The notes below the pieces were generated by a model, which saw only the letters and a program-made list of their open reading frames with translations, made no database searches and was not told where the DNA came from. DNA of 63,193 nt, filler included, from Hausera hauseri (taxonomy: Eukaryota): assembly GCA_046269625.1 (NCBI GenBank). It is 12 parts of 12 records of this genome, joined end to end, with 100 filler letters (N's around TTAATTAATTAA, not from the genome) between each part and the next. Parts side by side here need not be neighbours in the genome. Positions count along the whole stretch, not along the records: positions 26,822 to 32,112 come from JBJURY010288613.1; positions 32,213 to 40,231 come from JBJURY010818752.1; 10 more parts are not named here. The stretch is one strand, 5' to 3'. The stretch's first letter is position 1. Every line of letters starts with the position of its first letter. Of the stretch, positions 9,751 to 44,097 are shown piece after piece. The position numbers and the translations under genes are program-made.

Positions 9751-10742
9751 TGTTTAATCAATAATTATGGTAATAAGTGTTTTATCATTTATATGTCTGT
9801 GTAATAAAGCGTGTATATTTTATTTTCTATTGTATTTCTCTATGTACACTTTATTCCTGTAGACGTTATTTTTATAATAGTGGTAAAAGGTTTACTCAAA
9901 TCTATATTACAAAATATGTATGCCACTTATAATACACCATGCATGTCATGTATGTTTGAAAAGGTAAACACTGATCTTGAAGTAATTGAGTTTAAAATTC
10001 TAGTCTAAACATATTTGTATATTTCCCTTATGCTTTTACAGATCGCAAAATAATGGAATTATAAAACATTCGTTTATATTGTTGTAGAATGACAGAATGA
10101 CGCATGAGCAAAAGTCAAGAATTGATTATTAATAATTATCGACCAGTATATTTGAATATTGTCGATTATTAACTGGCATACAGCATTTGTAAATAATATG
10201 TAAACAATATGTTATTCAGTTGATATTGAATATAATCAATTTATTTATTTGATATTTCTGGATAATTAGTTGTAAATTGTAAATAATTGATTGAAAGTAG
10301 AAAATATGGGGGTAGAGCATTCGAAGTGAGTAGTATAAATACTGAACCAAAACGAAGAGGAATGAACAACTAGTAAACTATTGAACTGTTGAGATCTCAT
10401 TAAGCCGCTGAAATGCTACTATAGAACTACTTGTTGATCGGAATCAGTACGACGATTTCCGAGAATTACTGCGAGACGTATATTTATTGAAGATTTATAT
10501 AGGTAAGAGGAGAATTTGTTAGCCTTTGCACAGGATTTGTAAACATCTACAAGCATTCTAAAAGAGACACGTTTGTTTAACGAGAACGTTAAACCAAACT
10601 TGCATAAGTTAAACTTCAATTTCAAGTGTAACTACTGTTATAGTTGGGAGTTGCGTAGGGCCCATCCGTAACTATAACAATATTTTCACACAATTACTTA
10701 AAATAATTAACAGCCAATAAAATTAAAAATTAATAAATTTTA

Positions 10743-12086
10743 ATGAAAAGTTTATTCCATTTCACTAAATTGTTCCAACATATCATACAATCAATAATGT
10801 TTGCAGGTGAATTCACAGAACTCCTTGATAAACTGAAATTTGCAGATTTTCGAGGTTTCGCAGATATATTCGACAAATTAAATTTCATTCTAACGGTTAC
10901 GATTTTGATAATGAGTTCTGGAATTAGCATTCTCAAAAACTATGTTGCTTCTCCAATGCATTGTTTCATGCTAGAAGGACCAGCCGGTTTAATGTATACT
11001 CAGTATATCGAAAACTATTGCTGGGCTAAAGGAACTATACCAATCAGTTCATTGAATCCTGTTCCACAGACTAAGGCAGAATGGGATGCAGTTGATAAAT
11101 ACCGAATTGTGTATTATCATTGGATTCCATTGATTCTTATTTTACAGTGCTTTACAACTTACTTACCAAGAATGATTTCAAAAATTCTCTGTTCCGAAAA
11201 ACTTGGAATAAATTTGGAATTACTAATGGAAAATGTCAGTAAAATCAAAGGTATGCCTGAAAATCAGGAAAAATCAAAATCCATTGCGAAAAAAATCGAA
11301 AACTTTGTATACTGTCATCGGGACTACAGAAACGGAACGGTGGCCTCAATTAGAAGGAAAATTGTTCATTTCTTTGCACCATTGTTTCCCAGTAAAAGAC
11401 AAGGCACAGTATTGACCTTTACGTACATAGTGATGAAATTTTTGTACATTGGAAATTCAATTGGTCAGTTAGTCTTCATAGCAATGTTCTTTCCTTATGA
11501 AGACACGAATAAACTTCAGTTTATATTGCATTTGGTTCAAACATTTTTTGGAAGAGAAAAATGGGCTACAGCAAACGAAATATTTGCAGTACAAACAATA
11601 TGTCATGTTGATAATATAAAAGTGTTGGGTGGCAGTGTTGATCATGCAGCAACATGCAATCTTCCGCAGAATATATACAACGAAAAACTATTTGCTTTCC
11701 TCTTTATATGGTTCTTTATTCTTGGACTGTTGAATGTATATAGTATGTTAATTTGGATTGTACGTTTGTTTTCATGCAAAAGATTTCAATTCTTGAAGAA
11801 ATGCTTAAAGAATGAAGACAAATATGTAAAGGAAGACAAAGAAAAAATAAAGAAGTTTCAATCGGATTTTCTCCTATTTGACGGATATGTAATTCTGCGG
11901 ATGATTTATCTGAACAGTGGAGATCTTGTCACATCCGCAATTGTTGGTCAACTTTATGATATTTACGTAGACAAATACACTGAGATGAATGTTCGAAACA
12001 CAAATAAGCCGTCGAGCATCATTCTTTCATCGGAAAAATTAATTTTGACAGAAGTTTACAATGAAGCCATTGAGGAATTTCAGTAA
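10743..12086 (+). CDS. inx: Innexin (gap-junction protein), single exon; true start may be Met19 at 10797
   Basis: 447-aa ORF with four hydrophobic segments, SPMHCF, YIENYCW, YYHWIP (YYQW motif), TYIVMKFLYIGNSIGQL, F..QTIC and CNLPQNIYNEKLFAFLFIWF. Confidence 0.96.
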   Translation: MKSLFHFTKLFQHIIQSIMFAGEFTELLDKLKFADFRGFADIFDKLNFILTVTILIMSSGISILKNYVASPMHCFMLEGPAGLMYTQYIENYCWAKGTIPISSLNPVPQTKAEWDAVDKYRIVYYHWIPLILILQCFTTYLPRMISKILCSEKLGINLELLMENVSKIKGMPENQEKSKSIAKKIENFVYCHRDYRNGTVASIRRKIVHFFAPLFPSKRQGTVLTFTYIVMKFLYIGNSIGQLVFIAMFFPYEDTNKLQFILHLVQTFFGREKWATANEIFAVQTICHVDNIKVLGGSVDHAATCNLPQNIYNEKLFAFLFIWFFILGLLNVYSMLIWIVRLFSCKRFQFLKKCLKNEDKYVKEDKEKIKKFQSDFLLFDGYVILRMIYLNSGDLVTSAIVGQLYDIYVDKYTEMNVRNTNKPSSIILSSEKLILTEVYNEAIEEFQ

Positions 12087-15169: not shown

Positions 15170-17848
15170 ACTTTTTTAATCCCCATTTAGTGGTCTTTTG
15201 ATCTCAGGAAGGAAAAGTATCTGCTCATGCCTTGTTTCGATAGAAACCGGATATTCCATAACTACCTCTAGTATGTAGCCTGTATCTCCACTGGGATCCA
15301 NNNNNNNNNNGATCCATGTCTAGTATAAGGATGCCTTCGGGATGCTCAATCCACTTGAATTTATGATATGGCATTGGGGCGCTGCTTGCCCATCCATACA
15401 AATTGTTGGCATCCAGGTATGATATATATGAGGTTTCTTTGCATGGATCATACTGGGCTATATACTTCTTGTTAGCCTTACTATACCGAGGGATGGCATG
15501 GCATATTCTGCTTCTAATGCCTCTCTCAATCATGAGGAACATATTGTAATCCTTTATGATCTTCAGCCTAACACCTGTATATCTCAGCATAGCTGCCCAA
15601 CCCATCTCTGGAGCCGTAAAGAAATGAGCCGGATCCAATGCATCCCTGAAACTCTCAAAGATATCCGTCAGAAGGAGCACTTCCGTCTTTAGGTATATGC
15701 CGCTCTATTCTCCTAATTTTTGGCATTGGAATGCATGCCAGACATTTTAACAATGCTGGTAATCCATATCATTGATATTGCAATCAGAGAGGATATTGTA
15801 AAAATCCTTCTTGGCTGGCAATGAGGTCTCATCCAGTGTTTCCATGATGTTATATAGTCATAGGAAACACGCCTTTCCTTTTGACTAGGTCAAATGCAGT
15901 GGAAATAAACCGCTTCGCCTCCTTGAGTTTTTCTGCAGGGCGGTTCTTCACTAAACTGTCAAGTGAAGACGCATGAAACGGAAACTGTCTATGATGCAAA
16001 GCCTGCTTTTCCCAACATGCTTGGTAAATGTAATGTATTTTTCCTCACTATTAGGCATCACATCTATGTTTCCTTCAATGCTGCCCAGTTCCCGAACAAT
16101 GAAATGGATATCATAGCCACTGAGATTAGGGAACACTAGAGGCACATATGTACATGCTTTGCAATGTAGATTGCAGTTGTTGCATGCCGAGACCTGATAT
16201 GTGTTTGTAAAATGGCAATGATCCCCGACTTTATGATTATCCTTAGTGAATGATTTGTAGCACAAGTAACATACTGTTGCCTTGCGCCATTCTTTATCTT
16301 TCTGCTTCGACATGTTTATTGTATCCTTATGCAGCTGCTGCATATCTTCAATCCTATGAGCCATATCTTCAAGTCGCTTCATGAAATGAGCTGCTGCACT
16401 TGGACCCCTGAATAGATATGGTTCACTGTCCAGTCCTTTGGCATACATGCTATATGATGAGAGCTCATGATATTGGTATGCCGTTGTGCGGCTGTGTTGG
16501 AGGTTAAGACAGCAACTCTGAACTATGCGCAGGATCGCTTCAAAGTCGCAACAGATAACTATTGGGACCTTGATCTTCTTCTCCAACTCCTTGAATTCAA
16601 TGTAATCCTCCTTGGGGAAATCTGGACTGATACAATAATCGTTGTTGCAGTACATCTTGTGCTCCTTCAGCTTCTCCACAGCTAACTTGCCACTGAAATT
16701 GGACAAGCATCGTTTACATATTTCTATTTGTCCATGATGTTTTGTATTATGTAATCCGACTAGTCTCTCAAAGTCTTTGTTCCAAGAATAATGTTTCTTT
16801 TCTCCATCGTCTAGTAGGAAAAGGTCCCTATGATCTTCCAATTCAGCATCGTATATATGCCGGGGATAGAATTTATCATCCTCGTCCAATCCCAAGATAT
16901 TGATAGACAAGTTGTTAACTTTTCCAAATTTTTAACTTCATCAATGGATGGAGGGAACTTGATACATTAGAAGTCATAGTTGTGCTGCACGTCCTTATAT
17001 AGCCAGACTCGTGAAGCATGATTTTTATCTGTTACAAATTTTGATAGAATGGCATACATGAAACACATGTTATCATTATTATAGACATTGACACATACTT
17101 TTTATTAGCGGTCCAATCGGGGAGCTGAATATATGAACTGCCCCACATGGATGAGTTTTTGTGAATATACACAATCAATCTCTTGATGGTTGCCAGAGTC
17201 CATGGCTCTTTTTATCCGGGCTCTCCCCGGCTTCACGGATCAGCTTCTCGTGCGCCTCTTGCATTCATACTGCTATACTGGTGTTTTCCAATATGGGTCT
17301 ATTTTTGGTCTTGAAGGGCATATTGGGTTCTTCGCCATCAACATTGATGCATGTGAGCGCCAGTTTCATATTCACCATAAAAGCTTTGAGCTCAGCCATG
17401 ATGTCCTGAAGAATTTCTTCTGTCTCGTCCTTTGTGTATAAGAGGAAATCTTGGAAGATTGTTTGACCAGTCGCCTCAATAACATATCTGCAACATTTTC
17501 TCTTTAATGCTGCCGCATCAACTAGCCGCTGTCTTTGGTTTTTGATGGAGCCGGTGCGTCTGATGTGGCCGTGCCTGATGTGGCTGCGCCTGATAATGCT
17601 GCGCCTGATGCGGCTGCGCGTTTCAATTCTGTAATATACTTCCAAACTGCTGCACCAGATCCAGCAGCTTAATGCGAGGCAGAACACTGCGAAGCAGATG
17701 CATCAAAATTATGTTGCTCATTAAAGATGGCATTCTTTGACTTTGATGCAAAGTTACTCAAATGATGTTTGTGATCATAATAAAACTTTATGTAATCTGC
17801 GCCGCATACATCCTCACATCCTGGACATATATAATAGCGGATCCGATT
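15170..17848 (-). mobile_element. Polinton/adintovirus-type family B DNA polymerase (DNA_pol_B_2) pseudogene, copy A, with endonuclease VII-like Zn insert; 3' truncated
   Basis: Motifs GSSYIQLP, CDFEAIL (ExoI), CYLC...DHCHFT...CNNCN, NLSGYDIHF (ExoII), IDSFRF, VLLLTDIFESFR (ExoIII) and YLDANNLYGWA (motif A). Frameshifts and stops present. Confidence 0.9.
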
Positions 17849-17948
17849 NNNNNNNNNNNNNNNNNNNNNNNNNNNNNNNNNNNNNNNNNNNNTTAATTAA
17901 TTAANNNNNNNNNNNNNNNNNNNNNNNNNNNNNNNNNNNNNNNNNNNN

Positions 17949-20573
17949 AGGGTTCCTTTGATGGATCATAATCTGCCATGTATTTGTTGATGGCCTCACT
18001 GTACCTGTGAATGGCCTGGCATATTCCACCCCTGATGCCTCTATCAACCTTGAGGACCATATTGTAATCCTTTAATATCTGGAGCCTTATGCCGGTATAG
18101 CGCAGCATCGCCACCCAGCTCATTCCTGGAGCTGTAAAGAAATGGGCTGAATCTAACTTGTGGCTCTTAAGCGTCACATACCGGAAGCATTCGAAGACAT
18201 CAGTAAGCAGCAGCACATCTGTGCGGAGATATATATCACTGTATTCCCTTATTGTCCTTCACCTCAAGGTTTGCCATACTCTTTGGGCATGTTCATTGTC
18301 AGCATCGCTAATATGACTGGATGATAACTGACTATAAAAGTCCTCCTTGACCGGTAATGCTTCTTTATCCAGTGTTTTCCATGAAGTTATATAGTCTTGG
18401 GGGACACGCCTTTCCTCTTGACAAGGTCAAATGCAATGAGAAAGAACCGCTTCGTCTCCTTGAGTTTTTCTGCAGGGAGGTTCTTTACTAAACTATCCAG
18501 TAACGAGCTCATGAAGCGGAATCTGTCTATGAATCGAAGTCTAATGCGGCCCACATGCTTAGGGAAAGTGATATATTTTTCCTCACTGTTTGAAATAACA
18601 TCAATGTTTTCCTCAATATTACCCAGTTTCCACACAATGAAGTAGGAATAATAATCACTGAGATTGTGGAACACTACAGGCACATATGTACATGTTTTGC
18701 AACGTAGAGTGCAGTTTTTGAATGCTGAACCTCGATATTTGCCTGTAAAATGGCAATGATCCCTGACTTTATAATTATCCTTGGTGAAGGACTTGTCGCA
18801 CAAGTAACATGTTGCCTTGCGACATTCATCTTGCTGCTTCGACATGCTCATTGTATCCTTATGCTGCTGAAGCATGTTTTCAAGCCTATGAGCCATGTCT
18901 TATAATCTCTTCATAAAATGTGCTGCTGAGTCTGGCTCTCTGAATAGAAATGGTTCACTGTCCAGTCCTTTGTCATACATACAATATGATGAGAGTTCAT
19001 GATATTGGTATGCTGTTGTGCTGCTATGTTGGGGATTAGGGCTACTGCAGTGAACTGGGCTGAGGATGGCCTCAAAATCACAATAGACGACAATTGGAAC
19101 CTTATGCATCTTCTCGAACTCCTTGAATTCCAGGTAATCCTCTTTGGGGATTCTGCTCGGATGCAATAGTTTGTATTACAGTAAGTCTTTTGCTCCACCA
19201 GCTTTTCTGCGGATGTCTCCCCATTAAAATGGTTAAAGCATCTCTTCCAGCCTTGATTTGTTCTGGGATATTTGGGATCCTATGGGACGCTCACAATTCT
19301 TGATCCAGATGAAATCCTTGTTTCTCCATCTAGCAGAAGTAGATACCTATGATCCTCCAATTCCTCCTTGCACACATGTAATGGATAAAATTTGTCCTCC
19401 TCCAATCGAAAATTGTTGATTGAGATGTTTACGCATTAAAATTTCACGACTTCATCTAGACTTGGCGAGAATGAAATACATCTGAAGTCGTATGTGTGCT
19501 GCACTTTGTCATATATCCAAACTCGGGAAGCATTATGTTTATCCTGGAGTAGTTTTGATAAAATGGCATACATGAAGCACATGTTGTCATTATTGTGGAC
19601 ATTGACACTTGCCTTTTAACTATGGATTCAGGAAGCGGTATGTAGGAGCTGCCTCTCATTAGCGAATACTTGTGTACATGTACAGTAACCCCTTTATTGT
19701 TGCTAAAGTCCAACCGCTCTTGTACTGGCTTTCTTCGGCTTCACGGATGAGCCTTGCATAGTCCTCTATAATGAAATCCTTAATATTAAAGGATTTCAAT
19801 AGTGGCCTGTTCTTTGTCTTGAAGGCTCTATTAGACAACTCTCCATTGACATTGGTGAAGGCGGCTTCCAATTTGAAGTTCAACTTAAGGGCCTTCAGCT
19901 CCAACAAGTTGTCCTGGAGAATTCCTGTTGCCTCCTCCCTTGAATATTCTAGGAAATCATGGAGGGATGTCTGCCCAACGGCTGCTATGAAGTATCGCCG
20001 CACTTTTCTCTTCAGTGCAGCTGCATCAAATGGCCGCTGTATTTGGCTTTTTGATGGAGCATTTGCTGCTACTTCTGGCAGGCGTTTTGGTCCTGCATCA
20101 TGCCTTGTTGTTAAAGCAGGCCTTGCTGCTAAAGCAGGCTGTGCTGTAAAGCAGGGTGCTGCTCATTATATATGACCTTTGGCTTTGTATTGAAGTCTCC
20201 TTCACATACAGCCTCACATCCAGGGCAAATGTAATAGAGGACTCTTGAATTTGTATCCATAATAGCTCCTCATGGCGTTTTGGCAATTCTGAAGGTTGTG
20301 CATTGCACATGTGCAATAAACATATGAACTGCATCTTTTATTTTTGGCACAAAAGTCGTTATTGGCATATTTGGTAAAGGAAATCAATTGCTGTTTATGG
20401 ACATTGTAAAAGTCTTCATAACTAGTTTGGCACACTACTTCACATATAGGGCATATATAATACTTAACCATGTTGTACATATGTCCAAAGTACTTCATAA
20501 CACTGGTAATTTTCCGGCTCGTGGATTTGAGCCAAACATTCGCTGTAAAGTCTGCACATCTAAAATCAATCAA
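17949..20573 (-). mobile_element. Polinton-type PolB pseudogene, copy B (close relative of copy A)
   Basis: Motifs YYICPICEVVC, FKTKNRPLL, RGSSYIPLP, VYCDFEAIL, RDHCHFTGKYRG, FHNLSDYY, KRKGV, LLLTDVFECFR and GIRGGICQA. Confidence 0.9.
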
Positions 20574-22782: not shown

Positions 22783-24742
22783 ATGTCAGAAGGAAAAGCC
22801 GACTCAGTAAATGGGTAACTATCTAAGTTGGAAGCCAAAGTCTTAAGTGAAGCCGGTAGGAACTGCAACGAGTCGACAAATCAAATAGATACCTACTTTT
22901 TAGCTGAACAGCGTATCATTGCCTGCACGGTTAAAAATTTCTCTGTTATTTGCGGAATAACACTCAAATTCCAAGTAGCAAATTTACTTAGTGCGTGTTT
23001 CAAAATATGATGGAGATCATATCCACGCAAATTATGAAAAATAACAGGCAAATTATACCTAATCTTACGAGCTAAGTTACACTGATTACAAGCTGGGCCT
23101 AAGTATTTACCTGTAATATGGCAGTGATATCGAACAAATGTAGTGCCCTGTTCATGGCAAAGATAACATGCTGTGGCGTTTTTAAACTGAAACCATTCAG
23201 CTGGTGATAACGGGATCATCGGCTTTTTCGCATTTCCATATCAGGGGAAACTAATGTTTTAACAATTTGCTCTAAACAAGCCAAAAACTCAACTATGGAA
23301 TTTTCACCAACAAATTGTCTATATTCAATACCTATTGTTGAAATTAACAAGAAATTGGCTGCAGCATGCAAATGAATATGCTTGACTATATCGTCCGGAC
23401 ACAGAACAGATTCAAAATCGGTTTATACGACGAAAGGCGGATTTATTGATTTACCCAGCCCTTAAACTCGCAAAATTTACTTTCGGGCATTTTGTACAAA
23501 GTTATACACTTTGGAGAAGATTTGCACATTGGTAAATGCTTAGCATAATCAGTATCAAGTCTAAAGCCATGCAAACATTTTTTACACCAATGTTTACAGT
23601 GAATTCTAAGTTTATTACTGTTCATATTTAATAACCGTTTAATATTAGGGACAGCAACATAGTGAAACTTGTCATAATTTTCCAAAATCAAAGTTAACTA
23701 CAGTACCATTCGGATTTTTGCTGTGATGCAAAATGTCAACGAATGGATTTTGTACTACGTCCTCATCAAAATCCACATCATACTCATCGTGAAACAGAAA
23801 ACACTACTTGATAAGCGCGGATTCTGCCTCTCACATTTGCCTGTTACATATTTTCATAGGCATATCTTCCGATGAATATTTCAGCTCGCATAAATAAGGA
23901 ATATAATTGTTGACACTATATCTATGACTGTCAAAAGAAGAATACTTGGTCACTGCCGGAATAGAGTACAGGAAGCACAAAGTGTCCTCATTTTGTACGT
24001 TAATAATGGCCGATGCGTTTTTTAAAGCGTCAGGTTTTGGAATATGACTTACCAGACAAGTATGGTAGTGGGCTTGTTTAGACTATATGAAAACAGTATT
24101 TCAATATCTTAGCCACTTTGCATCCACTATCCATTTCAGAAAAATTCTATTTTATTCCGTAAACTATCAGCTACAAAGTCAGGATAACACTGCTCATAAG
24201 GGACAGCTCTATATGAAATATAAGCCTCCTTAAAGTCACCCTCAGCATTATAAAACAATCTCAAGACCTTATTGAATTTTACTAGATGGATATCGAGAAG
24301 CATACAACTGTAAAAGAGAGACAATTTCTTCGGGCGGTGTAGGAGAAATTAGTTGGTCAGGCGCAACATCAAAACAAAGCTTTACATAATTATTGCCAAC
24401 AACAGATTGTACATCGAGTCTTATTTTCTGTACAGGCTTTGCAGATTGCCTAAATTTCTTATTTGCAATCTCATCTGTATTTTTTTGCATTTTCCTTTTA
24501 ACTGGTTGTCGTTGTTCATCGGTGGAAGATGTTTGAATTTTTTGATCACTGACAAATTGTTTAGCCATATTAATCCTTTCTGTATGTTGTTGGAGTATTG
24601 CTGTTTTGGGTTTGGTCAACATAGTTAGGTGATGTCCGTGCCGGTTTCGAAATTCAGAGAAATTTTGACCTGATAATATTTCACATGAGGAACATATGAA
24701 AAATTGGGATCCACTGTACCGCACTGCATAATATCTGGACAT
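22783..24742 (-). mobile_element. Polinton-type PolB pseudogene, copy C (second subfamily)
   Basis: Motifs FFICSSCEIL, FHYVAVPNIKRLL, HWCKKCLHGF, DFESVL, CYLC...RYHCHITGKYLGPACNQCN and FHNLRGYDLHHI. Confidence 0.85.
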
Positions 24743-26821: not shown

Positions 26822-26898
26822 CCAGTATTGCGTCGAAATACGCGTCCCATTCCGGTTCATTTCCGACATCTGGAAGTCCAGCACCTACCAAAGCTACG
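26822..26898. repeat. 77-bp terminal direct repeat (identical to 32036-32112)
   Basis: CCAGTATTGCGTCG...CCAAAGCTACG is the first and last 77 nt of the contig. This is the typical k-mer overlap of a circular assembly path. Confidence 0.97.
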
Positions 26899-29399
26899 CT
26901 CGTTTTTGCACATTTTCTCGAATTTCTTTCAACCTGGGCTGTATTTCCTTCATCTGCGTAGTCCGGAAACCTACTCCATTTCCACAAGCATATTGAATCA
27001 TTTTCACTAAGTCGCCGAATTCATTGGAATCAATGAGTCTTTTTGGTGATAATCCGTTAATTCGATAATTACATCCTTTTGCCATATTCGTACAAATTCT
27101 CGCTTATTTTTGATTTCTGATTCGGTAAAAGCATATTTGTTTCGGTAGACTTCGAATTCTTTTGTTAGTTCATCTAGCCTCGTTGCTCTTTGCTCTGTTT
27201 TGATGCACGTTTCTTCGACTTGCTGTAATTTTGGCATCAGCTGTCTCATCCACTCGTCATTAATCTCCGCCATTTCTACCAAAAAGTAGGCTAACCCGTA
27301 CATTTCATTTATAATTTTTGAGTTGGGATCTATGGCATCTGACAATTTCTTTACAAACTTAGATTTCTGAAAACTAATATGCTGATCATTTCATATTTTT
27401 ATCAATTTGGTATGGAAATTCTGATTTGATCCGGCCATCCATTCTTGTGGTTTATGCAAAAATCTTATTACATCTATTAACGTAGTTCCGTGTTCCGGAC
27501 AAATGTCTAGGGTCTCAATATCTTGAATTGAGATCTCTTCGATAGGTTTTTCTGTCAGACGTTGAACTCCTTCTAGTCGGACGTTTCTTAATTTTGGATA
27601 GAAATTGCATTTCATATTCCGTTTTTCCGTAAAGTTCGTTTCTTCAATCATTTTATAAATTTTTTCTAATAGCGTTGCTTTTTGCTTCTTTTTCATAAAA
27701 TTAAGTCGCCTTAATGCTTCAAATCTCGTTCGGATGTATATTTCGGCTAGTATCGCCTCTAAATTTTGTGCGCTTTCTTCTAATTGTCTCTTTACAGATG
27801 GCTGGCTTCCTGGAAATTTTTTCTTTCGGTCTTCTACTATTTTGCTCAATCTCATTACTAGTTCGGACCATTTCGATAACTGATTGACAATTATTGGTTT
27901 AGCCATTATAGCCTTATCTAGCATTTTGTATGCGTCCTTCAATTCGTCATCATAATCCCGCTGATATATCTAAATTCGTCTTTATATTCATCGAATTCTA
28001 AGATGCATGCTGTTACTACGTATTTAGTTTCTTCATTATTTTGAGACATAATTCGATTTCTCAGACTATAAATCTGTACTCGCTTTTCATTTTCTATTTT
28101 GATCCGATTTTCCAAGCTCGTGTATTGTTTAGGTACAGCAAATGCGATTTTTATCATTTCCATTAAAGGAAAAATATCTATTGGGTCTATATCCAATATT
28201 TCTAAATCGATATTACTTCGGTTGTTGACTGATTTTTTCTAAGTTGGTTAATTATCGTGTAGCGAATGTCATCCACCATATGCTCTAAATTGTGGACTAC
28301 TCTCTTCCGTTTTGGATTCGCTTCCAACGCTGATAACAACGTTTGCGCTTTAGTGACTTTTACGTCGACACTGTCTTCATTCTTATTCCATTCTTCCAAA
28401 AACTCGACTCCACTTTTAATCCATGAATCTAGTTCATGTTTCCATTTTAACAATGTTTCTGCTGATACCCCTTCAGGTTGTCTTGCGTCGATTGCTTCAG
28501 CAAACTTTCCTTCGCTACGTAGTTTCAAACTTTTATATAACTTCTCGGCGAATTGTTGTTCTTTCCCGGATATGTCTACTTGTTCGCTGATCTCCTTGAG
28601 CCTTTCTAAATTTTGTTGTAATATTTCGGGCTCTAGACACTTAATTCGCATTTTCTTTAGCTCATCGGCGTTCTTCCATGAACGTCGAATTTTCCATTTT
28701 TTTGGATCAAAATCGTCAGTATTTTCCATTTCTTCCTCACTAATAGGAAGTAGACAGATCTCGTTAATCTCATTAGCTGATCCTATGGACTCGGCGGTTC
28801 CGACAGGCGTGATTGATCCGATTTCTGGTTTATTCACATTATGTCCTATGTCATCTATAACGATGTTCGGACTACTTGTTCCTTTAATTTTCTCTTTAGT
28901 TATTTGTGAACGTGAGCAACTTCTACGTTTCGTCTTAAATGAAGGGCTACGGCCTCTATTTTTCGTAATTATAAGTATTAATGGTTCCATAAATTCCCGT
29001 TCTGCAGTATCGTCCTCAACATACTTATCTACTTTTTCAACCGTGAACTCAGGCGCTACGTCTAAGTCGACTTCCGTCGATGGGCCTGGTTTATCCGATG
29101 GTTTATTATTCGTGGGAACATTCTTTTTCCGTGTCATGTCGCTTCGTTTTGGTGCTATTGCCTGCTCAGAGTCAGTTTATGGTTCTACAAAACCATGATA
29201 TACTTCTAGTAGTATTAGTTTATCTCTGTACTCTTTTCTAGCTGTCAATATTTGTGGATTACAAAATTCAGGCTGAGCGTCTAGAAACTTCCGTAAATCT
29301 TGTATATCGATAATAGTGCCTGTATCTCCACTAACACCATACTTCTCATCTAAATTTTCATTAGTTCTGATCATACTAGTATCTATTGGCTCAGTAAAT

Positions 29400-30449
29400 G
29401 AAACTCTACGTGGGTTTGGACATGATCTTGAAATGTGTCCTTCTTTCCGCAAGTGAAACAAAATGAGTTCCCGTTTCTACCGACTCTCTGTCGACCGTCT
29501 TCGTTTACCGGCGATTTAGATCTATTTGTACTCTTATTATACTAGGTTGCCGCACTGTCAGCGTTTCGTCGATTATCACTATTTCGGCTATCGCCGTTTT
29601 GATTCGAGTAGTTTGAGCCTCTATAATTTCCTATATTCCCATCGCAGTTAAAATCTGGTCGGTTCGTACTAGTAAAATTATTGCCTCGGCTATACCTATA
29701 ACTGTCGTTATTATTTCGGTTCCCATAATTTTTGTTATTCGTATATCGTCTATCATCTCTTCCATGATTATCATTCCGATTTATGTCCGTGCGATCACTT
29801 CGATCATTATTTCTGTCGATTCTATCATTATGTTTGGCATATCTGTGAAGTGCCATTTCTAAGTCTTGAGCTAACCGTAGAGTCCCTTCAAAGTTTTCCG
29901 GCCTAGCCAAAATTAATTGCTTAAGCAAATCTCGTGACCAAATACCATGGATTAATTAAGTCGTCATCATGACATCTAGATCTGGCGGTGTTGCCTTTTC
30001 TGCGGCATCGCGTTCCGCATCTGTTTTCGCTCTAGCTACGTTGGCTATACGCAGTGTGTTTATATAACTATTGGCAAGTTTCTTCAACGCAAATGCGAAT
30101 TGCGTTACTGATTCACCTTTTGTTGTACTCTATTCTGAAATGCCATAAGCTTTTGTTGCGGCGTTACTGTCGGTAATAATTTACGGTTTAATGCTCCTAC
30201 CAGAGAGGACCAAGATTTCTTCTCGTCATTAGTAAGTTTGCTATATGCGTCAGCAGCTAGATTTTTCAAATATAACGACAAGGGTTTAATCATTACTTCA
30301 GGAGTAAGGCTAGCACCTTCTGCGTGCAATTTGCAAGTTCTCAAGAATTCATTAAGCCCGTCTGGGTCTCCATCATATGCCGGCAAGTTTAAAGAATCGA
30401 AGGTGAAGATGTCTAGTTTCTGCGCTACTGGTTGGTTGTCTGCTGCCAT
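29400..30449 (-). pseudogene. Retrotransposon Gag (capsid-like region, N/D/R-rich linker, CCHC zinc knuckle)
   Basis: LPAYDGDPDGLNEFLRTC...YLKNLAADAYSKL...WSSLVGALNRKL...FQNRVQ. The knuckle CFTCG(K)EGHISRSC is split by a 1-nt frameshift near 29445. Confidence 0.85.
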
Positions 30450-30788
30450 GTTAATTACGTTATTTGTTGCTAAATCTACTTAATTTATTTTATGTACCTC
30501 AAGTGGAATTTTAAACTGTTTATTTTGCGCGACAACGTCTAGTTTGATTCTATTCTCGGAATTTGAAAGTTTATCTACTTTTTGTGTATCTCTATAAATA
30601 TTTCGACGTGTCTCACGTATAGGTGAATTGTCTTTTAATATATGGTTTACTTTTGACTTACCAATGCTTGTTCTCTATTAGAGTATGCGTTACTTATCCC
30701 CCTATTTGATTTTATTTTTGAAATATATCAATTTAATTGGTGTGTAATTATTTAGCTCTTAAAAGTAAAGTCTAGCGAGGTACATACT

Positions 30789-30805
30789 TCCTGCTAGGGT
30801 CGCCA
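30789..30805 (-). promoter_or_regulatory. tRNA primer-binding site (tRNA-Arg-like)
   Basis: TGGCGACCCTAGCAGGA starts 2 nt after ...TATATAACA. Its complement ...TCCTGCTAGGGTCG-CCA looks like a tRNA acceptor/T-stem end. Confidence 0.8.
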
Positions 30806-30807
30806 AA

Positions 30808-30852
30808 TGTTATATATTGGGGTGGCCCTTATTCAACGCCCACTATATAACA
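30808..30852 (-). repeat. 45-bp mini-LTR candidate with 14-bp imperfect terminal inverted repeats
   Basis: Minus strand TGTTATATAGTGGGCGTTGAATAAGGGCCACCCCAATATATAACA. The ends match at 13/14 positions as inverted repeats. Confidence 0.7.
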
Positions 30853-32399
30853 GAATTACACTCAAGATTATTTCAATTCTTATGCAGTTCGGTCTATCGT
30901 AATCGAATAGACTGAATGTACCTTACCGATTTTAATTATTATGCAGGTAATGCGTGCGGTCCTGTGCTGATAATTGAAATGTGCTAAGCTTATAGCTCTA
31001 TTGATTTCGTTCTCTCGATTAGGGTTTATTTTGACAGCTAAGTATAGTAATACTTTCCTTAGTTCTTCATTTGTGTTTTCTACCATGATTTTATCGATTA
31101 CTGCTTCGTCAGTTAAGCTGCTTTTTGATCATTTAAAACGTGAACTTCTTATCAATCTAGCTGCTTCGAAAATTATCTTTTCTTTCTCATCCAGTATATC
31201 ACCTCGAAGGCTTGAATAATTTACAATTCGTACCAAGTTCTTCAATAACTCGTTTAACTCTTCATTATCTGTGCTAAAGATCGGAATTGACATTTGTTTC
31301 AATTCTCTAATCAATTCTACGTTATAATCTACTTCTCACGTTTTCCTAGGCCGACCAACTGGACGTTTCGGCCTTGGCCCTTTTGTTGCTATTTCGCTCA
31401 ACGGTACTAAATTGATGTCATATTTTTCCTTATCCTCGTCTGTTTGCAAATACGCAAAATACAAGGCAGCATTTCGGACTCCCATAATTTGTCCTACGCA
31501 TTGTTCTGCTTTAACTTTGCGTGTGGCTTCTTCTTTCGTCTGTTCATTTGCTATCGTTACTACTACTGGGTTTGTTTCGCCTGGAATAATCCCGACGTCT
31601 ATCAATTGCTCTAAGTCGTTGAGTATTCTACCTCTAAAATAGAATCTGTAATTTAACTCGTTTTTCCCGCCGTTGTTTATCAGCCATTCTCTTACATTTC
31701 TTACGTAAGAATATTTAGTTAACACTCATTCTTTTTCGTCCATCCATTCGGATGATACCATCATTTTTATCGTCATTTCAGGTTTAGCCCTCAAGATTTT
31801 AGCATACTTTCTTATTAAAAGTTTCGGCACCGTGCTATAAATCGTATTCTCACTAGACAATATAGTCAAAGTTGTTATAAGTTGTCGTAACTTATTTCAG
31901 TAATATTTACGTTAATTAGTTCAATTAAATCTTTTTCAGTTAGTGCTGAATTCAGGAGCATCGCCACATCGAATCTCCTGTTCTGTGGGCACATTTCTAT
32001 CTCATTTATTTGTACTGGAGTCATGGGCTTTTCGGCCAGTATTGCGTCGAAATACGCGTCCCATTCCGGTTCATTTCCGACATCTGGAAGTCCAGCACCT
32101 ACCAAAGCTACGNNNNNNNNNNNNNNNNNNNNNNNNNNNNNNNNNNNNNNNNNNNNTTAATTAATTAANNNNNNNNNNNNNNNNNNNNNNNNNNNNNNNN
32201 NNNNNNNNNNNNATAACAAATCGAGAAAAAACCTTTTCATATATTCCTCAGAGTTGTAAATTTTTTAAAAAATTATCAAAGATTAAACCCAAAGGAAAAT
32301 TAAAATGTTGGTTTAAAACTAAGAAAAATCAATTTAAATCTCTTACTATTCGATTGAGTATCAAAACTTTCACAGAAGGACAAAGTTGTGATTCTGTAT

Positions 32400-35050: not shown

Positions 35051-35479
35051 GATCCGTTTCAGATAGAATGTCAAACCACAATTATCAGCCAGAGCCTTTA
35101 AAAGAAACAGCGACCCTCTTGATTTCTAATTACCACGTGGAGATACAACATTACCCGATTTATCGTCTATCACCACCATTTTCCTTCTACATTTCTCAAT
35201 TATACCTTAATACAGACCGTACACGTCACACAACGTACCGAGACATTACAATTATATGCCCTCATTCATAATATCACCGCCCTTTGCGATTTCTATTTGA
35301 CTCAATGGTTTCATTTTAACTGACCTTCCGCACATCATGTCCTCACATTACTACCTATGTATTCATATCCACCCTAGTATCCGCGGTGGTATGATTTCTT
35401 CACCAACCAGTGACATCACGGGTAAAGTGACCACAAAATCCAAATCCATTCTCTACTATTTCAAATCAAACCATCCACC

Positions 35480-38400
35480 TACTCCAACCGATACTAACTC
35501 TTCACAAAAATCTTACAACTACACCCCCACATTGCTATGAATACTTTATAGACAATGAAAATTTTAGCAAAACGTGGCTCCACTTCCATCAACTCTGGTT
35601 ACAATCCAACGGTATTACAGACCCGTTATCCAAACCCCGTAATCTACTCTACCTTCTACCAAACTCCATAAAGGCCTCAATCCATAACTTATTACACATC
35701 TTTCAACAGCCTGACCCTTATACGCAATTGTTCAATGCTGTGTTAAAACTGACAGAACCACCAATTGATTTGATAATATAACGCTTCTTTAAAGGAAATA
35801 AAATGGGGACACAAAAACCTGGTGATTTCCTACGTACCTCGTTGGCTCACTTACGTACTTTAGGTGTCACCAAGGAACACAACCCGGAACTACTTCGCCG
35901 ATATTTCCTTAATGCTTTACCCATTCAAATTACGGCTTTACTTACTATTGTTGAAGATTCTATAGCTTTATATAAACTAGCTGAGTTGGCCGATAAAGCA
36001 CACGAAGTCTTACAAATACCATCACAACCCATTATATCGGCTGCAATTACAACAGATGACAATCAACGACATACATCTATCGAGCACCAATTGAACCAAT
36101 TACGCGCCGAATATGCGGCACTACAACATACAATCAACACCATCAATGATAAGCTGAATGACCTTTCCTTATATCGACGGAATGCTTCCTCGCCTCATCG
36201 AACGCGTTCTCTTTCCAGAAATCGAACACCGTCAACAACGCGATCATTTATATGTTATTACTATAACAAATTTAATAACAAAGCAAATAAATGCTGTTTA
36301 GAGTGTAGATATTATTCACCGAATCTACACTCAGATAATATAGTTTGCATCTACCATGCAAAATTTGCATCTAATGCTCGGAATTGTATTTCAGGTTGTA
36401 ACTATAAAACTAACAATAACTACACCACTGCTAGACATTCCAGTTTCTCTAAGAGTAACCGTCCTAACTCACCAATCCAAAAAATTGATTTTTCCGCCAA
36501 TATTCTCGGCAGATTCTGGCAAAGGCAACTTACCTAATTTCTCTTGCCGACACACTTCATTCGCAGTCTTTACACTAAAAGCCGCTATCTCTAATCCTAA
36601 CATTCAATCCATAGACTTTCTCATCGATACTGACACAGCGATCTCACTACTACCCCTTTCTTTTCCGGTCCAGCATTCTTCACCTAAAACAAAACCTCTA
36701 TACACCGCCTCCGGTCAACCTCTCCATATTGCCGGAACCTGCAAATTATTTTTCACTCTGCCAAAATTTTACCCTCCATTTCATTGGACTTTACAGTTGC
36801 TAACGTCCAAACGACAATACTTGGTTTTGATTTCCTTTCGCATTATAACTTCCTAATAGATTGTAACCGACGCTGCATGAAATCGAATACATTTTTAGAC
36901 TGTAGCACAGGAATAGATAGCACCCCAACGACAACACAGTCAACAGTAAGTAGGCAATCTATTTTTAAACAGTCAGTACCTCATTATAATTCCAATAACT
37001 ATCCCGTTTTATATCTTAAGCTTCCAAAGGACAATGTCGACAGTCAATCACAGCTCAATGTCGACACCTACGATCTGGTATTTTCAGTAAAATCATTGAC
37101 CAACAATACCTATTCAAATACGGTTACGGACCCGACCATCCTACTCCAAACTTCATCCGATTCCTCATCAACAACCAACCACCATATACCAAGTACTGCT
37201 AGCAACCTTGGTTCATCGTCACTCACAAAATTCCAGCAACTACCCGTAAGTTTACAACAATTCATCCATACTTCTTGTTCTCGTATACTTCAGAAAGATC
37301 GGAACTTCACCCCTGTAAATGACATTAACCACCATATAATTACAAGACATCAAAGACCAATTCCACATAAAGTCCGTCCATTGTCACTGCGTCGCAGGCA
37401 GGCAGCAGAGGCGGAATTTATGGAACTCAAACAATTAGGTATCTTCCGCGGATCTAAATCCCCATGGTCTTCGCCTCTCCACGTTGTCCAAAAAAGATGG
37501 ATCCTTCCGACCATGCGGCGATTACCGCCAGATTAATACTTTAACCATAATAGATGCATATTCACTTCCATTAATCATAGACATATTACATCGGCTAAAT
37601 ACTACTTCAGTTTATTCAACAATTGATTTAGCAAAAGCTTACCACCAAATTCCTGTCGCACCGGAAGACATCGAGAAAACTGCAGTTACCACACCTTTTG
37701 GTCTTTATGAGTACTTGTATATGCCTTTCGGTCTCCGGAATGCTGCGCAGACCTTTCAGCGACACATCGATTCAATCCTTTCAGACTTTACTTTTGCGCA
37801 TCCATATATTGACGATATCTTGGTTGCCTCTTTTTCTGTTAAACAACACGAGGTACACCTACGATCTATCTTAAAACGAATTAATCAGTTTAATATGTAG
37901 GTCAATTTTGCGAAATGTAACTTCTTTCAGAAACTTGTTAATTTCCTCGGACATATTGTCTCTTCAAACGACCATTCACCTCAGCCTGATTGAGTTGAGA
38001 CTCTTAAAAGTGTCCAACTACCTAAGACAACAACAGAAATGCGCAGTTTTCTTGGTACCCTGCATTTCGTCCACAAATATATTCCATATTGTTCGAAACT
38101 CACTGCACTTTTTGCACATTTAAGAGCAGAAAAAAAACACCATAAGGACTAAAGACTGTTGAAATACTAGCATTTCCTATGCCTGACACCGAGTTAATTT
38201 TGACCACAGATGCATCAAACATCGCAGTAGGTGCTGTACTACGCCAATTGTATAAAGGCGAAAATCAGCCTTTAGAATTCTTTTCCCAAAAACTAACGTT
38301 ATCAGAAACTAGATATTCAACTTTCGATCGGGAACTGCTAGAAATAGTTCTTGCTCTAAGACACTTTTCTCACTTACTTACAGCTCATAATTTTGTTATA

Positions 38401-40231
38401 CAGACTGACCACAAACCGTTGATTGATATAATGGCAATGAAGCATCCTTCAACTCGACAATTGTAGCAAATTTCATATTTGTCCACATTTAACTTTGACA
38501 TTAAACACATCGACGGCGTTGACAATCTAGTTGCCGATTTCCTATCTAGATCAGTCGGTTCAATCAATTTTTCGCCAATCTTTACTCAGACAAAACTCCA
38601 AGAAAATCAATGATGTCAAGGTATTCTCAAACCATTCAAGTCGCGCCGCATCGTCGACGGCGTGGCTTTAGACACGTCCAAACCAGGACATTCTAAAATA
38701 TTTCTTGCCCCATCTGTACACAAACAAGCATTTTATAGTATACATTCATTACATCATTTTGGTGCCAAGGCAACTTTTCGCTTGCTTTAACGCCAAGTAG
38801 TGTGGCCGTCGATGCGCTTCAATGTACAAGCATGGGTTAAAGAGTACATGGCTTGTCAGAAGTATAAAACCATAAAACATTTAAAACCGCCATTATACCA
38901 TTTCACTTGTACTTCACGTTTTGAAACAGTACATAATGATATCGTTGGTCCTCTTCCAATAGACAACGGCCACCAATTTATTCTGACCATGATGGACCGT
39001 TCCTCACGATGGCCAGAAGCCATTCCACTGCGTAGTACAAACACTGATACAATAGCCGATACTTTCATCCGTACGTGGATTAGTAGGTTCGGATCCCCTC
39101 GATATATCATCTCGGATCAAAGTTCTCAATTTGAATCAAATCTGTTCAAATCCTTAGTCGGCCGATTGAGAATAAGTCACATTCATACAACACCTTATCA
39201 TCCCCAATCAAATTGTCTTCTCGAACGTTTCCACCGAACCTTGAAAACCATTTAGAATCCTTGCACAGTCCAACACCAATTGGACTACACTTCTACCGTT
39301 CGTCCTGCTTGGCTGGCGGAACACTGCGTCCACTTCCACAGGATGTCCACCAACGGAAGCTTTACTCGGAACATCTGTACGGCCACTGTTTGAACTAACC
39401 GCTCTAGAGGCGACTCCTACAGACGAGAGGATACGAGCAGCACAGGATCATTTCGTTACAATCAGCAAAGATTCGTTTTTCAAGCACTTAAACAATGAAA
39501 AATCTTACATACCCAAAGACTTATACTCGGCAAAGTTTGTATGGCTAAAAAACCAGACACCGTGCGGTTTACAGACACAGTACATAGGACCATATAAATT
39601 GGTGCAGCTGCATTCGCACAACACTGTTATCCTCAAAGACGGAAAGGAAGTTGCAGTGAATATTACTAATTTAAAACCCGCCTTTTACGTCGACGATACA
39701 TCAACAACCGAAACATCAACCTCATTCCTCACCCCTGTAAGCATCTCTACCCCGACTTCGATTCCGCAATCTACCACACATCATTCCGCTACTCCCGTGT
39801 CTGTGCCTACATTGTCACCTACCAATTCCATTCCTGCCCCCCCCCCTCGGCATTTCCATCTACTCCTACTTTTATCATTATTTCTGCTCCACACCCTATT
39901 TCTATTCATTCGCCTATCTCTGCTTCATCGCTGAACTTATCACCTTCCAAAACCATCGCAAAAAATTGGAATACCTTACCTGCAACCACTTCTCCACCTT
40001 TTGTATTGCCTTCCCCAGACGCAACACCAAATCATACTAAAGCTAATGTCTCTTGCCAAAGACTACCAGCGGTCAGGCACCACGGCGAAGGTACGTCACA
40101 AATCCGTTACTTTCAGTACCTATAGCAGACAACTAAACATTGAAGGAGTACAATGTCTTGTACGCACAAAAACTTATTAGACAAATTATCTGTTTGTTCT
40201 CGGGATTTTCTTTCAATCTTTTCTTTACAGT
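35480..40231 (+). mobile_element. Near full-length degenerate Ty3/Gypsy, CsRn1-like clade (gag, PR, RT, RH, IN)
   Basis: Gag GTQKPGDFL...FLNALP...LAELADK with CHCC-type motifs. PR FLIDTDTAISLLP. RT SPWSSPLHVV, IDLAKAYHQIP, MPFGLRNAAQTFQR, YIDDILV. RH LTTDASNIAVGAVL, TDHKPL. IN VHNDIVGPLP, IISDQSSQF, ERFHRTLK, GPY. Confidence 0.95.
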
Positions 40232-40924: not shown

Positions 40925-41201
40925 TGACGCATTGCTTAGAGTGTTGTAGCATTGGAGGGGTCAGCGTGTCGATGGGAGGATTTTCTCCACCATGTGACTA
41001 CTCGACACAAAACGTTTCTTTTATTTGGTATGAAATGATAATGACAATATACGTGCTGTAAATATATACTGAACAGAAATTGATTACGTTTTTTGAATTT
41101 TAAATAAAACGTTAGTTCAGCAGCCTTTTTTGGATTATACTTCATTCTGGATTTATTTCTTGCAAACCGGATTTATTTACTATACAAAATTGGTGTCAGA
41201 A
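40925..41201 (+). repeat. LTR (possibly nested, TGTA..TACA 40945-41186) followed by a tRNA-Leu-type PBS TGGTGTCAGAA (41191-41201)
   Basis: Follows the PPT, contains AATAAA (~41103) and ends CTATACA, then AAAT-TGGTGTCAGAA. Confidence 0.65.
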
Positions 41202-41274
41202 AATTGGAAATCAAATTAAAACGAATGAGGCACTTGAAACACTTCGTACGAATGATCAACAGACTAGTGATAAT

Positions 41275-44097
41275 ATGACAGATTCAGAAGTGGAAGAACA
41301 ATTCGAAAAACGAATTCCATTGATCAGTCGAAGCATTGATGAAAAACGAAAATTTTTATCTACAAAGGTGAACAATAACAGTCCATCCGCGTGTATTGAG
41401 GATTTAAAACACATTATATTTCGTAATGTTCAACCGGAGAAATTCTTGATGAAATTGGAATTTCTACGAATTTGTCTGTCGAGTTCACCGATTTCTTGGC
41501 TGAAAGAATTTAATAATGAGAAAAACAAAGGTTTAGAATCGTTGATATCTGTCTTGGGACTCTATATCGATTGTCCGGAAAATTCCCTTTTGTGTTTGAA
41601 GTGTTTGCGTGCATTCGGTAATGTCGGTTACGGTCTGTTGACTCTGATTAAAAGTAAAGAAACATTACTTCATGTCGCACATTGTTTAGCGTCGAAAAAT
41701 CAAAATCTTATGCTTTTAGCATTGGAATTATTGACTTTGTTCAGTTTTTACAGTTATGAAAGCCATTTTAACGTTCTCGAAGCGTTGTACATGAGTTCTC
41801 GACTGCGTAATTACAGTGAACGTTTCGGTCCTATTCTCGAGGGTTTAGCATTTGGAATTACGGATAATCACATGAATTTGGTGACGTCCTGCTTGCAATT
41901 TATTAACGTTATTGTCAATCCGAATTTTCGTGACAATGCAACGTGCTCCAGTCTCGATCCGAGTTACCGATTGCATTTGCGACTGGAATTCGTTCGGTGT
42001 GGAATTAATGATTTCCTTTGCCAATTGGTGAAATCCGATGATCCAGTTATTTGCGAACATGTCAGAATTTTCCAGTCGGACAGTGAACTCGAAGACGAAT
42101 ACATTCAAAAGTACGAAGTGATCAAAGCGTCGTTTCTGGAGCGTAACTGTGTTTATCAATTGTTGAATCGCACCATATTGCACACGAATTGCGATTCGTA
42201 CTTGACATCGATGTTACAACATCTTATGATTATAAACGACAGTCCGATTCGTTATCATCTCTATCAGCTGATCGACAGTGTCGTTGCTGAATTGATTATT
42301 CGCAGTGAAAGTCTCTGTACGGACCCATCGTTGAACCAATTGGATTCATTCAATTTGGGTGAACTATTTGAAAAGTTTCACGATCCGTCGTTTCAGCGCA
42401 ACGCTCAAGAGTTACAGAACAAGTTGGATAAAGTATTGGAAGAAAAATACCAAGCCGAAAGCAAATTGACGTCTCTCACAAACCGTATCGATCAGAAACC
42501 AGGTGAAATACCGGCCCCACCACCGGTGCCACAGCCGCCACCCGGTTTAGTTCCGCCTCCACCACCACCAGCACCGACTGGGAATGGGCTGATGCCACCT
42601 CCACCACCACCACCGCCTGGCGGTGCTCCGGTTTTGAGCGAACAGTTGCCGTTTGGTATAACAATAAAGAACGTGATAAAGCCAAAAAATCCACTAAAGA
42701 AAGCCAATTGGACGAAAATCGATACTCATTTATTGGATCAGAATTGCGTGTGGAAGAAAATCAGCGACAGCAACATGAAAGTTAACGAATTGCTGCACGA
42801 TCTTGATGAGAAATTCAGTACTCGCCCAGTCCGACCCAAGGAGTCAAACGAAGATTCCATATCGATGAATTCATATTCGAGTTTGCAAAGAAAGACAAAA
42901 GACTTCAAAGTTCTCGATCCGAAATCTGGTCAGAATTTGGGAATTTTATTTTGTTCGCTCAAGGCGCCGCCCAATGAAATTAAACGGCGAATACTGGAGC
43001 TCGATGAAGGTCTACTGACACAGACAAATGTCGAGAGTATTTTAAAAAACCTCCCAACTGCCGATGATCTGTCTCGTCTTGTTCAGATGACCGATGACTA
43101 CGAGAATCTCAACGAAGCCGAACAATTCGGCTGCACGTTGGGTTCAATCAAACGACTCCATTCCCGTCTCACGTGTCTGCTATTCAAAATGAAATTCGAC
43201 GAACGAATTTCCGAAATAAAACCGACAATATTGAGTGCGACCGAATCGCTCTGTGAAATTCGTAAAAGTGCAACGTTTCCCAAAATTCTCGAACTCATTC
43301 TGTATTTGGGCAATTTTATGAACAGCAGTTCGAAGTCATCTCAAACCGCCGGATTTAGCCTAACATTTCTGACAAAATTGGCCGAATTGAAGGATGCCGA
43401 CAACGAAATGACGCTGATGGATTTCCTTGTCCGACAAATACGTACTCGCTATCCACAGTTGATTAACGTTGTCAATGAATTCACGTTTCTCGACAAAGCG
43501 TCACGTGTCAGCACCGATAGCATAAACAACGTCATTCGGGAGTTAAAGAACACCAAAGACACGTTAGATCGCGAATTGACATCGTATCGGAAACAATCGG
43601 AAAATGACTGTTTCGTCGAAGTTATGAAGGAATTTATCGGACGGGTAACGGAACAATTGACAATTCTGACAGACATGAACAACAAATTGCAGGTGATGTA
43701 CGTCGATATGGCCAGGTATCTGACGTTTGATTTGAAAAAATACCCGTTGGAGTCGTTCTTTGACGATGTCAAGAAGTTTAAAGACGATTTCCTTAAATCG
43801 TTGAAAGCTATCGAATTGGAAAGTTATATGGAATCAAAACGACAGAAAGCAAAGGAGGATCAAGTTCGACGAGAGAAAGAAAAATCAGAGCGAACGCTGG
43901 GACAGAACAAACGGGCTAACGATGACGATAAGTTGGTGTTAGATCAGTTAATGGAAACGCTGAAGAGCGGTGAAGCATTCGGTAATTCCGATTTGCGGAA
44001 AAAGCGACTGAAGAAAGTCGATAAGTCTCATTTTGTTAACAGATCTCGTTCTCGCAATAATTTTGACTGCAATCTTATGGAATTTGCTCCAGTATGA
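41275..44097 (+). CDS. dia: Diaphanous-family formin (GBD/FH3, FH1, FH2, DAD), uninterrupted 940-aa ORF
   Basis: FH3 LEFLRICLSSSPISWLKEF, CLQFINVIV, RLHLRLEF. FH1 polyproline. FH2 LKKANWTKI, VLDPKSGQNLGI, LELILYLGNFMN, GFSLTFLTKL. DAD VLDQLMETLKSGEAF..RKKR. Confidence 0.96.
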   Translation: MTDSEVEEQFEKRIPLISRSIDEKRKFLSTKVNNNSPSACIEDLKHIIFRNVQPEKFLMKLEFLRICLSSSPISWLKEFNNEKNKGLESLISVLGLYIDCPENSLLCLKCLRAFGNVGYGLLTLIKSKETLLHVAHCLASKNQNLMLLALELLTLFSFYSYESHFNVLEALYMSSRLRNYSERFGPILEGLAFGITDNHMNLVTSCLQFINVIVNPNFRDNATCSSLDPSYRLHLRLEFVRCGINDFLCQLVKSDDPVICEHVRIFQSDSELEDEYIQKYEVIKASFLERNCVYQLLNRTILHTNCDSYLTSMLQHLMIINDSPIRYHLYQLIDSVVAELIIRSESLCTDPSLNQLDSFNLGELFEKFHDPSFQRNAQELQNKLDKVLEEKYQAESKLTSLTNRIDQKPGEIPAPPPVPQPPPGLVPPPPPPAPTGNGLMPPPPPPPPGGAPVLSEQLPFGITIKNVIKPKNPLKKANWTKIDTHLLDQNCVWKKISDSNMKVNELLHDLDEKFSTRPVRPKESNEDSISMNSYSSLQRKTKDFKVLDPKSGQNLGILFCSLKAPPNEIKRRILELDEGLLTQTNVESILKNLPTADDLSRLVQMTDDYENLNEAEQFGCTLGSIKRLHSRLTCLLFKMKFDERISEIKPTILSATESLCEIRKSATFPKILELILYLGNFMNSSSKSSQTAGFSLTFLTKLAELKDADNEMTLMDFLVRQIRTRYPQLINVVNEFTFLDKASRVSTDSINNVIRELKNTKDTLDRELTSYRKQSENDCFVEVMKEFIGRVTEQLTILTDMNNKLQVMYVDMARYLTFDLKKYPLESFFDDVKKFKDDFLKSLKAIELESYMESKRQKAKEDQVRREKEKSERTLGQNKRANDDDKLVLDQLMETLKSGEAFGNSDLRKKRLKKVDKSHFVNRSRSRNNFDCNLMEFAPV

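Follow-up and report, generated by a model that had tools for sequence, protein, structure and literature searches.

What does a contig with two identical ends represent: a circle, a tandem array, or neither? The question is raised by positions 26822..32112 of the window, i.e. the 63,193 nucleotides (filler included) of Hausera hauseri that were analysed here as 12 joined stretches. This interval constitutes the whole of contig C288613 (JBJURY010288613.1), 5291 bp long with a repeat unit of 5214 bp, in the assembly GCA_046269625.1 (869 Mb, 909,086 contigs). A terminal direct repeat search determined exactly 77 identical bases between 26822-26898 and 32036-32112, as originally predicted, an end identity expected by chance at ~1e-43, and among the 12 stretches in the window C288613 was the sole one with a terminal direct repeat of at least 10 bp. 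The repeat was also predicted to lie inside an ORF, and it does fall within a long, broken ORF1. From these ends the original prediction had derived a tandem array or a one-LTR extrachromosomal circle, closed through a physically existing end-LTR-start junction.

The assembly graph around the 77-base repeat

The length of 77 is one of the terminal-repeat lengths named as assembler overlaps in the CheckV paper (PMC8116208), and the predicted origin of the repeat as a k=77 overlap was borne out by querying the assembly for the same 77-mer, hereafter vertex V. Three of the best 40 scored matches contained V exactly, namely both ends of C288613 and the start of a second contig, C51819; another exact 77-mer, vertex W, was present in two of the best 40, inside C288613 and at the end of C51819. 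Compared with the loop, C51819 is 91% identical over 3.27 kb with its first mismatch at base 78, and C288613 is cut at V because this second contig branches there. The graph thus leads from V through either of two arms, A′ in the loop or B′ (C51819), to W, and from W through one segment (30094-32035) back to V, with the following components.

26822..26898 (no strand): vertex V, a 77-mer; start of C288613 and also the first 77 bases of C51819
26899..30016 (− strand): arm A′, the middle of the broken ORF1 (3′ part of gag, zinc knuckle, long unknown region), with C51819 as the alternative arm B′
30017..30093 (no strand): vertex W, an exact 77-mer; the last 77 bases of C51819, where the bubble closes
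32036..32112 (no strand): second occurrence of vertex V; end of C288613

Inspection of the assembly graph, which had been proposed as a check and was done here by contig overlaps, agreed with the predicted loop in that the path from V to V closes, but the loop is not isolated, C51819 forming a bubble from V to W. Further contigs ending in V or starting in W were not found among the best 40 candidates per search, and neither were exact-overlap entry or exit contigs at V, W or the junction described below, with the best 40 of 202 to 5846 candidate contig matches scored in each search. An overlap partner was absent at both of the two contig ends tested, so lost links are ordinary in this assembly.

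Depth was taken from one public run, possibly the source run, over assembled contigs only, and such contig depth gives no copy number, alleles being dropped at bubbles. Depths of 7-12 were determined for near-exact pieces of A′ (n=3), 7.9-14.6 for pieces of the junction half (n=4) and 3-21 for contigs with B′ alleles (n=9), versus 4.5-20.4 for a gene-bearing reference contig (n=8 pieces; median of 30 bins 16.5), and the mean depths of 10, 11 and 12 displayed no doubling. Roughly, contig depth excludes a high-copy array or an amplified circle, and the comparison of A′ plus B′ (21) with the junction half (12) also excludes, in the same rough manner and more weakly than for the array, a junction segment shared by both arms. 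The predicted multi-copy tandem array therefore did not hold up, its depth of 7-15 versus 4.5-20 in the reference (rough, contig-level) being at the single-copy level and its nearest unit, among the best 40 of 5846 candidates, being 91% identical, which speaks equally against a TE-derived satellite. The further expectation of decayed, chromosomal DNA, not a fresh circle, conforms to the heavy decay and the single-copy depth. The joint from 32035 to 26822 was not among the 8 of 2282 pieces listed, which is uninformative either way. The reference contig carries an intronless innexin ORF (449 aa, window 10737-12086, +, PF00876), and the presence of an innexin in the window indicates an animal host.

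The element family, its LTR and the ORF1-to-LTR junction

To judge from its sequence, the contig covers only the front third (5.2 of ~16 kb) of an element whose Ty3/gypsy family has the order gag-env-pol and encodes a chuvirus/gB-type fusogen. In this genome the family yielded 64 matches from the best 40 of 5846 candidates, many copies being at 75-85% identity and the nearest unit to the loop at 91% (among the same best 40 of 5846). Alignment coordinates of two overlapping copies gave a full unit of ~16 kb, of which the loop lacks ~10.7 kb, and env, pol and the PPT are absent from it. The features located in the loop are listed below.

28228..28239 (− strand): one-base frameshift common to A′ and B′, near 28237; 36 of 38 other genome matches are one base longer
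29420..29458 (− strand): what we take, from the translation, to be a broken CCHC zinc knuckle, split over two frames
30105..30449 (− strand): N-terminal (capsid-like) piece of the Gag ORF; first ESM Atlas match 'Retrotransposon gag domain', 0.95
30790..30805 (− strand): primer-binding site (PBS) by sequence, beginning TGG, two bases from the LTR end
30808..30852 (− strand): imperfect hairpin of 45 bp at the LTR's U5 end; taken for the whole 'LTR' in the original prediction
30808..30982 (− strand): last 175 bp of an LTR of 0.66-0.83 kb, 96.6% identical to the LTR in C325549, which runs on into the LTR interior
30981..30982 (no strand): unique junction with 2-3 bp of microhomology, where ORF1 just before env is joined to the LTR interior
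30983..32035 (− strand): 3′ part of ORF1 with a weak ubiquitin-like region; other copies continue into the fusogen ORF

The Gag piece had all 10 of its best family matches in one clan (ESM Atlas) and no match in Pfam, in which most of ORF1 found nothing as well. The ubiquitin-like region, at ~31339-31725 in the loop (Atlas leads <0.9), recurs in two relatives (L025:3409-4050 and L023:4646-5185) at Pfam E values of 0.001-0.04, below the cut-off, and is adjoined by what is presumably an AT-hook-like motif (31342-31365). After ORF1 the relatives continue with a PF24664 fusion glycoprotein, a weak protease match (E 0.019), RT, RNase H and integrase, in this order; the PF24664 match (Monjiviricetes_fusion) lies between ORF1 and RT in L023, L025 and L139 with E down to 4e-29, and the pol domains RVT_1, RT_RNaseH, Integrase_H2C2 and rve were found, in that order, in relatives only.

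Several other observations were made on the family and on the window. About 3 kb of extra ORFs lie between integrase and PPT in L141 (C73993, 3000-5820) and L142 (C80325, 2100-5770), and these presumably include a RING-like cysteine pattern. Segment 295-589 of L089 (C640389) has 1 change of its own in 295 sites; the copy is either very young or a consensus-like contig produced by collapse, and the family may have been active recently. L037 (C733067), L089 and L035 are mosaic copies with identities to the loop that switch between 80% and 97%, as expected from template switching between subfamilies, and L032 (C208300) contains at 1-1214 a second piece of the family's internal region, in opposite orientation within the contig. 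In the window, a distant relative of the ORF1 region (by eye; 2714-4243, +) lies tail-away from an RT-bearing gypsy fragment (RVT_1; 1-1723, −), and an intronless 993-aa ORF, labelled formin-like from its translation, occupies 41116-44097 (+). We further take 15225-19279, 22893-23240 and 54950-56320 to be broken DNA-polymerase-B and endonuclease VII-like pieces of Polinton type, 35431-39934 (+) to be another broken gypsy element with gag, protease, RT and integrase pieces, and 53424-54849 (+) to be a Tigger/pogo-like transposase.

Both LTR ends could be located in 12 of 23 other contigs, yielding an LTR of 664-833 bp from the TG next to the purine-rich PPT to the CA at the position of 30808, of which the loop retains only the last 175 bp. 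The 45 bp previously taken for the LTR (30808-30852) have a single occurrence in the contig and are merely the terminal hairpin of this longer LTR, family copies extending well past them; the argument that an LTR shorter than k makes the junction physical thus fails in its premise, with 664-833 bp in 12 copies. LTRs longer than 77 bp had been named, together with long reads of dispersed single units only, as what would turn the circle into an assembly collapse; the former were found. A TRIM-like short-LTR tandem was ruled out by the LTR of 0.66-0.83 kb and the coding internal region. tRNA genes were not found in the window.

The PBS is present in the loop and 13 other contigs, and the PPT in 8 other contigs and not in the loop. 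PBS follows 4 of the 8 PPT-bearing LTRs, a proportion that may be biased to PBS-bearing contigs, as similarity to the loop or the LTR had guided the choice of contigs, and some of the four are possibly assembly hops. Of the PBS-bearing contigs, 13 reach 775 bp or more upstream, and 4 of these displayed this order, PPT - full LTR - PBS, i.e. L142 (C80325, 5750-6631), L032 (C208300), L033 (C544230) and L136 (C150115), and their LTRs (688-768 bp) are clearly different from one another. C297401 and C325549 were considered as two ends of one insertion and rejected, their flanks being without a matching target-site duplication, and both flanks of one insertion occur in no single contig among the family contigs examined.

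On the ORF1 side, 12 of 12 copies examined depart from the loop at 30981 into a shared env-side sequence, and the junction at 30981-30982 is spanned by none of the 39 other scored matches. A TATA-like motif lies ~10 bases from the junction, at an offset that, by a loose pattern, is the same in 23 of 30 LTR loci. Since the junction connects an ORF1 interior with an LTR interior, it is neither an end-LTR-start junction nor that of a one-LTR circle. Hence, of the junction predicted to exist physically, the head-to-tail character most likely stands as physical, but its composition does not, and the one-LTR circle is contradicted by the absence of env, pol and PPT, by the 175 bp of LTR and by the position of the junction inside ORF1.

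Two sister units and the routes that could have joined them

Between A′ and B′, 224 substitutions were counted in 3078 sites (7.3%; K2P 0.077), and the divergence is steady at 7% up to both vertices. Over 757 codons the differences by codon position were 47/48/56 with a dN/dS of 0.60, compared with 0.14-0.26 for 10 other copies and 0.69 (range 0.48-1.01) in neutral simulation, and in terms of sequence C51819 is a neutrally diverged sister of the loop. The loop has 40 alleles in common with B′ alone, a number that does not exceed 4 for any one of 13 other copies, and the two arms share the frameshift near 28237, where the extra base was seen directly in 12 of 12 loci and is missing from 2 of 38 other matches. 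B′ contains none of the 5 loop-private in-frame stops and 1 of the 6 loop-lineage indels, which argues against a simple late duplication. The loop branch since the A/B split is 3.4% (104/3080 sites) and that measured against a nearly unmutated relative is 3.7% (11/295 sites), which dates the split to about the time of the insertion. At such divergence ~0.4-0.8 identical 77-bp runs are expected by chance (0.40 if each gap base is counted; ~0.8, worked out by hand, if gap events are counted), and the two that exist are unremarkable because of this expectation and because the contig was picked for having one.

We put the probability of a chromosomal two-unit head-to-tail arrangement of sister copies, by any route (deletion or direct duplication), at about 0.78. 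The simplest linear molecule for the graph at 1:1:1 depth runs entry-V-arm-W-junction segment-V-arm-W-exit, i.e. two diverged units head to tail, and the contig is likely an assembly path from the 77-mer in one sister copy to the same 77-mer in the other. There is, in our estimate, an even chance that the arrangement began as a shared-LTR tandem that later lost ~11 kb across its junction. By this route, two copies of one lineage would have come to form a shared-LTR tandem at or soon after insertion, through LTR-LTR exchange or insertion of a dimeric cDNA, and the first unit would later have lost ~11 kb to a microhomology-joined deletion that took out env and pol, along with the 3′ region, the PPT and 0.5-0.65 kb from the start of the shared LTR, leaving ORF1 joined to LTR tail-PBS-gag. 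Decay of ~3.5% per unit would have spared two chance runs of at least 77 identical bases, V and W, which the assembler would have collapsed at k=77, dropping the edges that lead in and out as dead ends and printing the path from V to V. To all appearances the structure is inert.

A candidate for the missing entry piece is C162993, the contig to which 30983-31472 is most closely related (92%; codon positions 15/10/15); it continues into env and would have the properties required. The physical adjacency and linkage of A′ and B′ we infer from the graph. C162993 dead-ends ~560 bp short of V with no overlap partner at its end, and against its being the entry piece it has only 2 loop-private alleles in 490 sites. 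Because it shares so few of these alleles and C630331 is nearly as close to 30983-31472 (91%), B′ could instead descend from the same master by an insertion of its own. C733067 was rejected as the exit piece, being 92% identical to the loop in 30094-30960 and of another lineage (82%) beyond W, a mosaic unlinked to B′.

A possible, if less probable, origin of the same two-unit chromosomal structure is its direct formation as a 5.2-kb internal duplication within one element, by a DNA-level microhomology event soon after insertion or by reverse transcriptase jumping, close to the 5′ end of one RNA, into ORF1 of another RNA packaged with it. All the evidence for two sister units applies to it, as does the age of the A/B split, about that of the insertion; one event would suffice, not two, and the junction lies ~10 bases from the TATA-like motif, near the predicted transcription start. 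Canonical TATA spacing, as we assume it, counts against the duplication by placing the predicted start ~14 nt inside the retained tail and not at the junction, and the shared-LTR tandems common in the family provide a ready substrate for the deletion route. These data fit either of the two routes, both of which end in the chromosomal pair of sister units.

It is quite improbable that the loop is an assembly collapse of a dispersed element with an internal deletion (5′ LTR-gag-ORF1 joined to 3′ LTR tail-flank), whose LTR tails share at least 77 identical bases so that the assembler passes straight from the 3′ tail to the PBS, with B′ as a separate sister insertion. No scored contig has 77 exact bases of the tail, the longest run being 56 (C325549); a 77-bp identical run would be needed in an LTR pair expected to differ by ~7%, and four lost links would be required versus two for the two-unit arrangement. 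These points stand against a tail (175 bp) that exceeds k and has few private changes (1.1%), a single-copy depth, and dead ends that are common, as at the two partnerless ends tested.

It is very improbable, in turn, that one decayed element released a real 5.2-kb extrachromosomal circle through microhomology, or that the A unit forms a homogeneous array. Among scored matches the graph component is indeed closed (V to A′/B′ to W to V), without entry or exit, but depth is not above single-copy, and the exact-match entry or exit at the junction that a young array needs was not found. A decayed fragment without replication function would be unlikely to persist as a circle at about one copy per genome, and the loop is not of the one-LTR form, env, pol, PPT and most of the LTR being absent. 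Hardly credible, lastly, are two allelic or alternating versions A′ and B′ with one identical junction segment, e.g. an array homogenised over 30017-32112, which would need no lost edges and would fit the lowest B′ depths (3-6) that together with A′ (7-12) approach the junction half (8-15), but which is opposed by the steady 7% divergence up to both vertices, by mean depths without doubling, and by a junction half with as many lineage changes as A′.

Meaning and comparison with known systems

The structure is likely a decayed partial tandem of an errantivirus-type element, of a known and fairly ordinary kind, and its biological weight is small. As a worked example it makes clear that, when an animal genome is assembled from short reads, a terminal repeat of length k proves neither a circle nor an array, and looking once for the same k-mer in other contigs exposed the bubble. 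More useful are the side results: a gag-env-pol family that is large (~16 kb), present in many copies and fitted with uncharacterised accessory domains, at least one nearly unmutated segment, and the frequent shared-LTR junctions, which together offer a way to test directly how animals come to carry tandem LTR elements. An unlikely extension is that shared-LTR concatemers are the habitual form in which this env-bearing family enters or remodels the chromosome (PBS after 4 of 8 PPT-bearing LTRs), which would suggest that an invertebrate errantivirus routinely inserts cDNA that is dimeric or derived from circles, and would make the loop a fossil of one dimer formed at insertion.

A one-LTR circle of a retroelement comprises one complete LTR and the whole internal region, with a PPT-LTR-PBS junction. 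The loop resembles such circles in being a closed path with LTR sequence followed by PBS and gag, and differs in that its LTR is cut down to 175 bp of 0.7-0.8 kb, that PPT, env and pol are missing, that its junction is non-homologous and that it is heavily decayed. With the k-length direct terminal repeats described for CheckV (PMC8116208) it shares a repeat of exactly 77 bp; unlike those of circles, its template is likely linear, and where an isolated circle would be broken at random, the break here lies at a branch shared with C51819.

The GAG-ENV-POL order with a gB-type env is reported from Nematoda, Bryozoa and Platyhelminthes (PMC13524379). Like these errantiviruses with an HSV/gB-type env, copies L023, L025, L138 and L139 display gag - class III-type fusogen (PF24664) - protease-like - RT - RNase H - integrase, and the family also has TG...CA LTRs, a PBS and a PPT. 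In contrast to them, the loop itself is without env and pol, and the family has a ~5 kb ORF1 region, a weak ubiquitin-like domain and further 3′ ORFs; the words 'ubiquitin' and 'tandem' have no occurrence in the main text of PMC13524379.

Shared-LTR tandems are common in plants, with LTRs >95% identical in 80% of rice tandems (PMC11899658), and internal-to-internal LTR tandems in Drosophila have been read as deletions across head-to-tail junctions (PMC5932611). The structure described here is like both in being a low-copy head-to-tail junction of sister elements, and the undeleted PPT-LTR-PBS form also exists in four other contigs of this assembly. Compared with the tandems of PMC5932611 and PMC11899658, it is older, its units differing by 7%, it belongs to an env-bearing family, and the tandem itself is deduced from an assembly graph.
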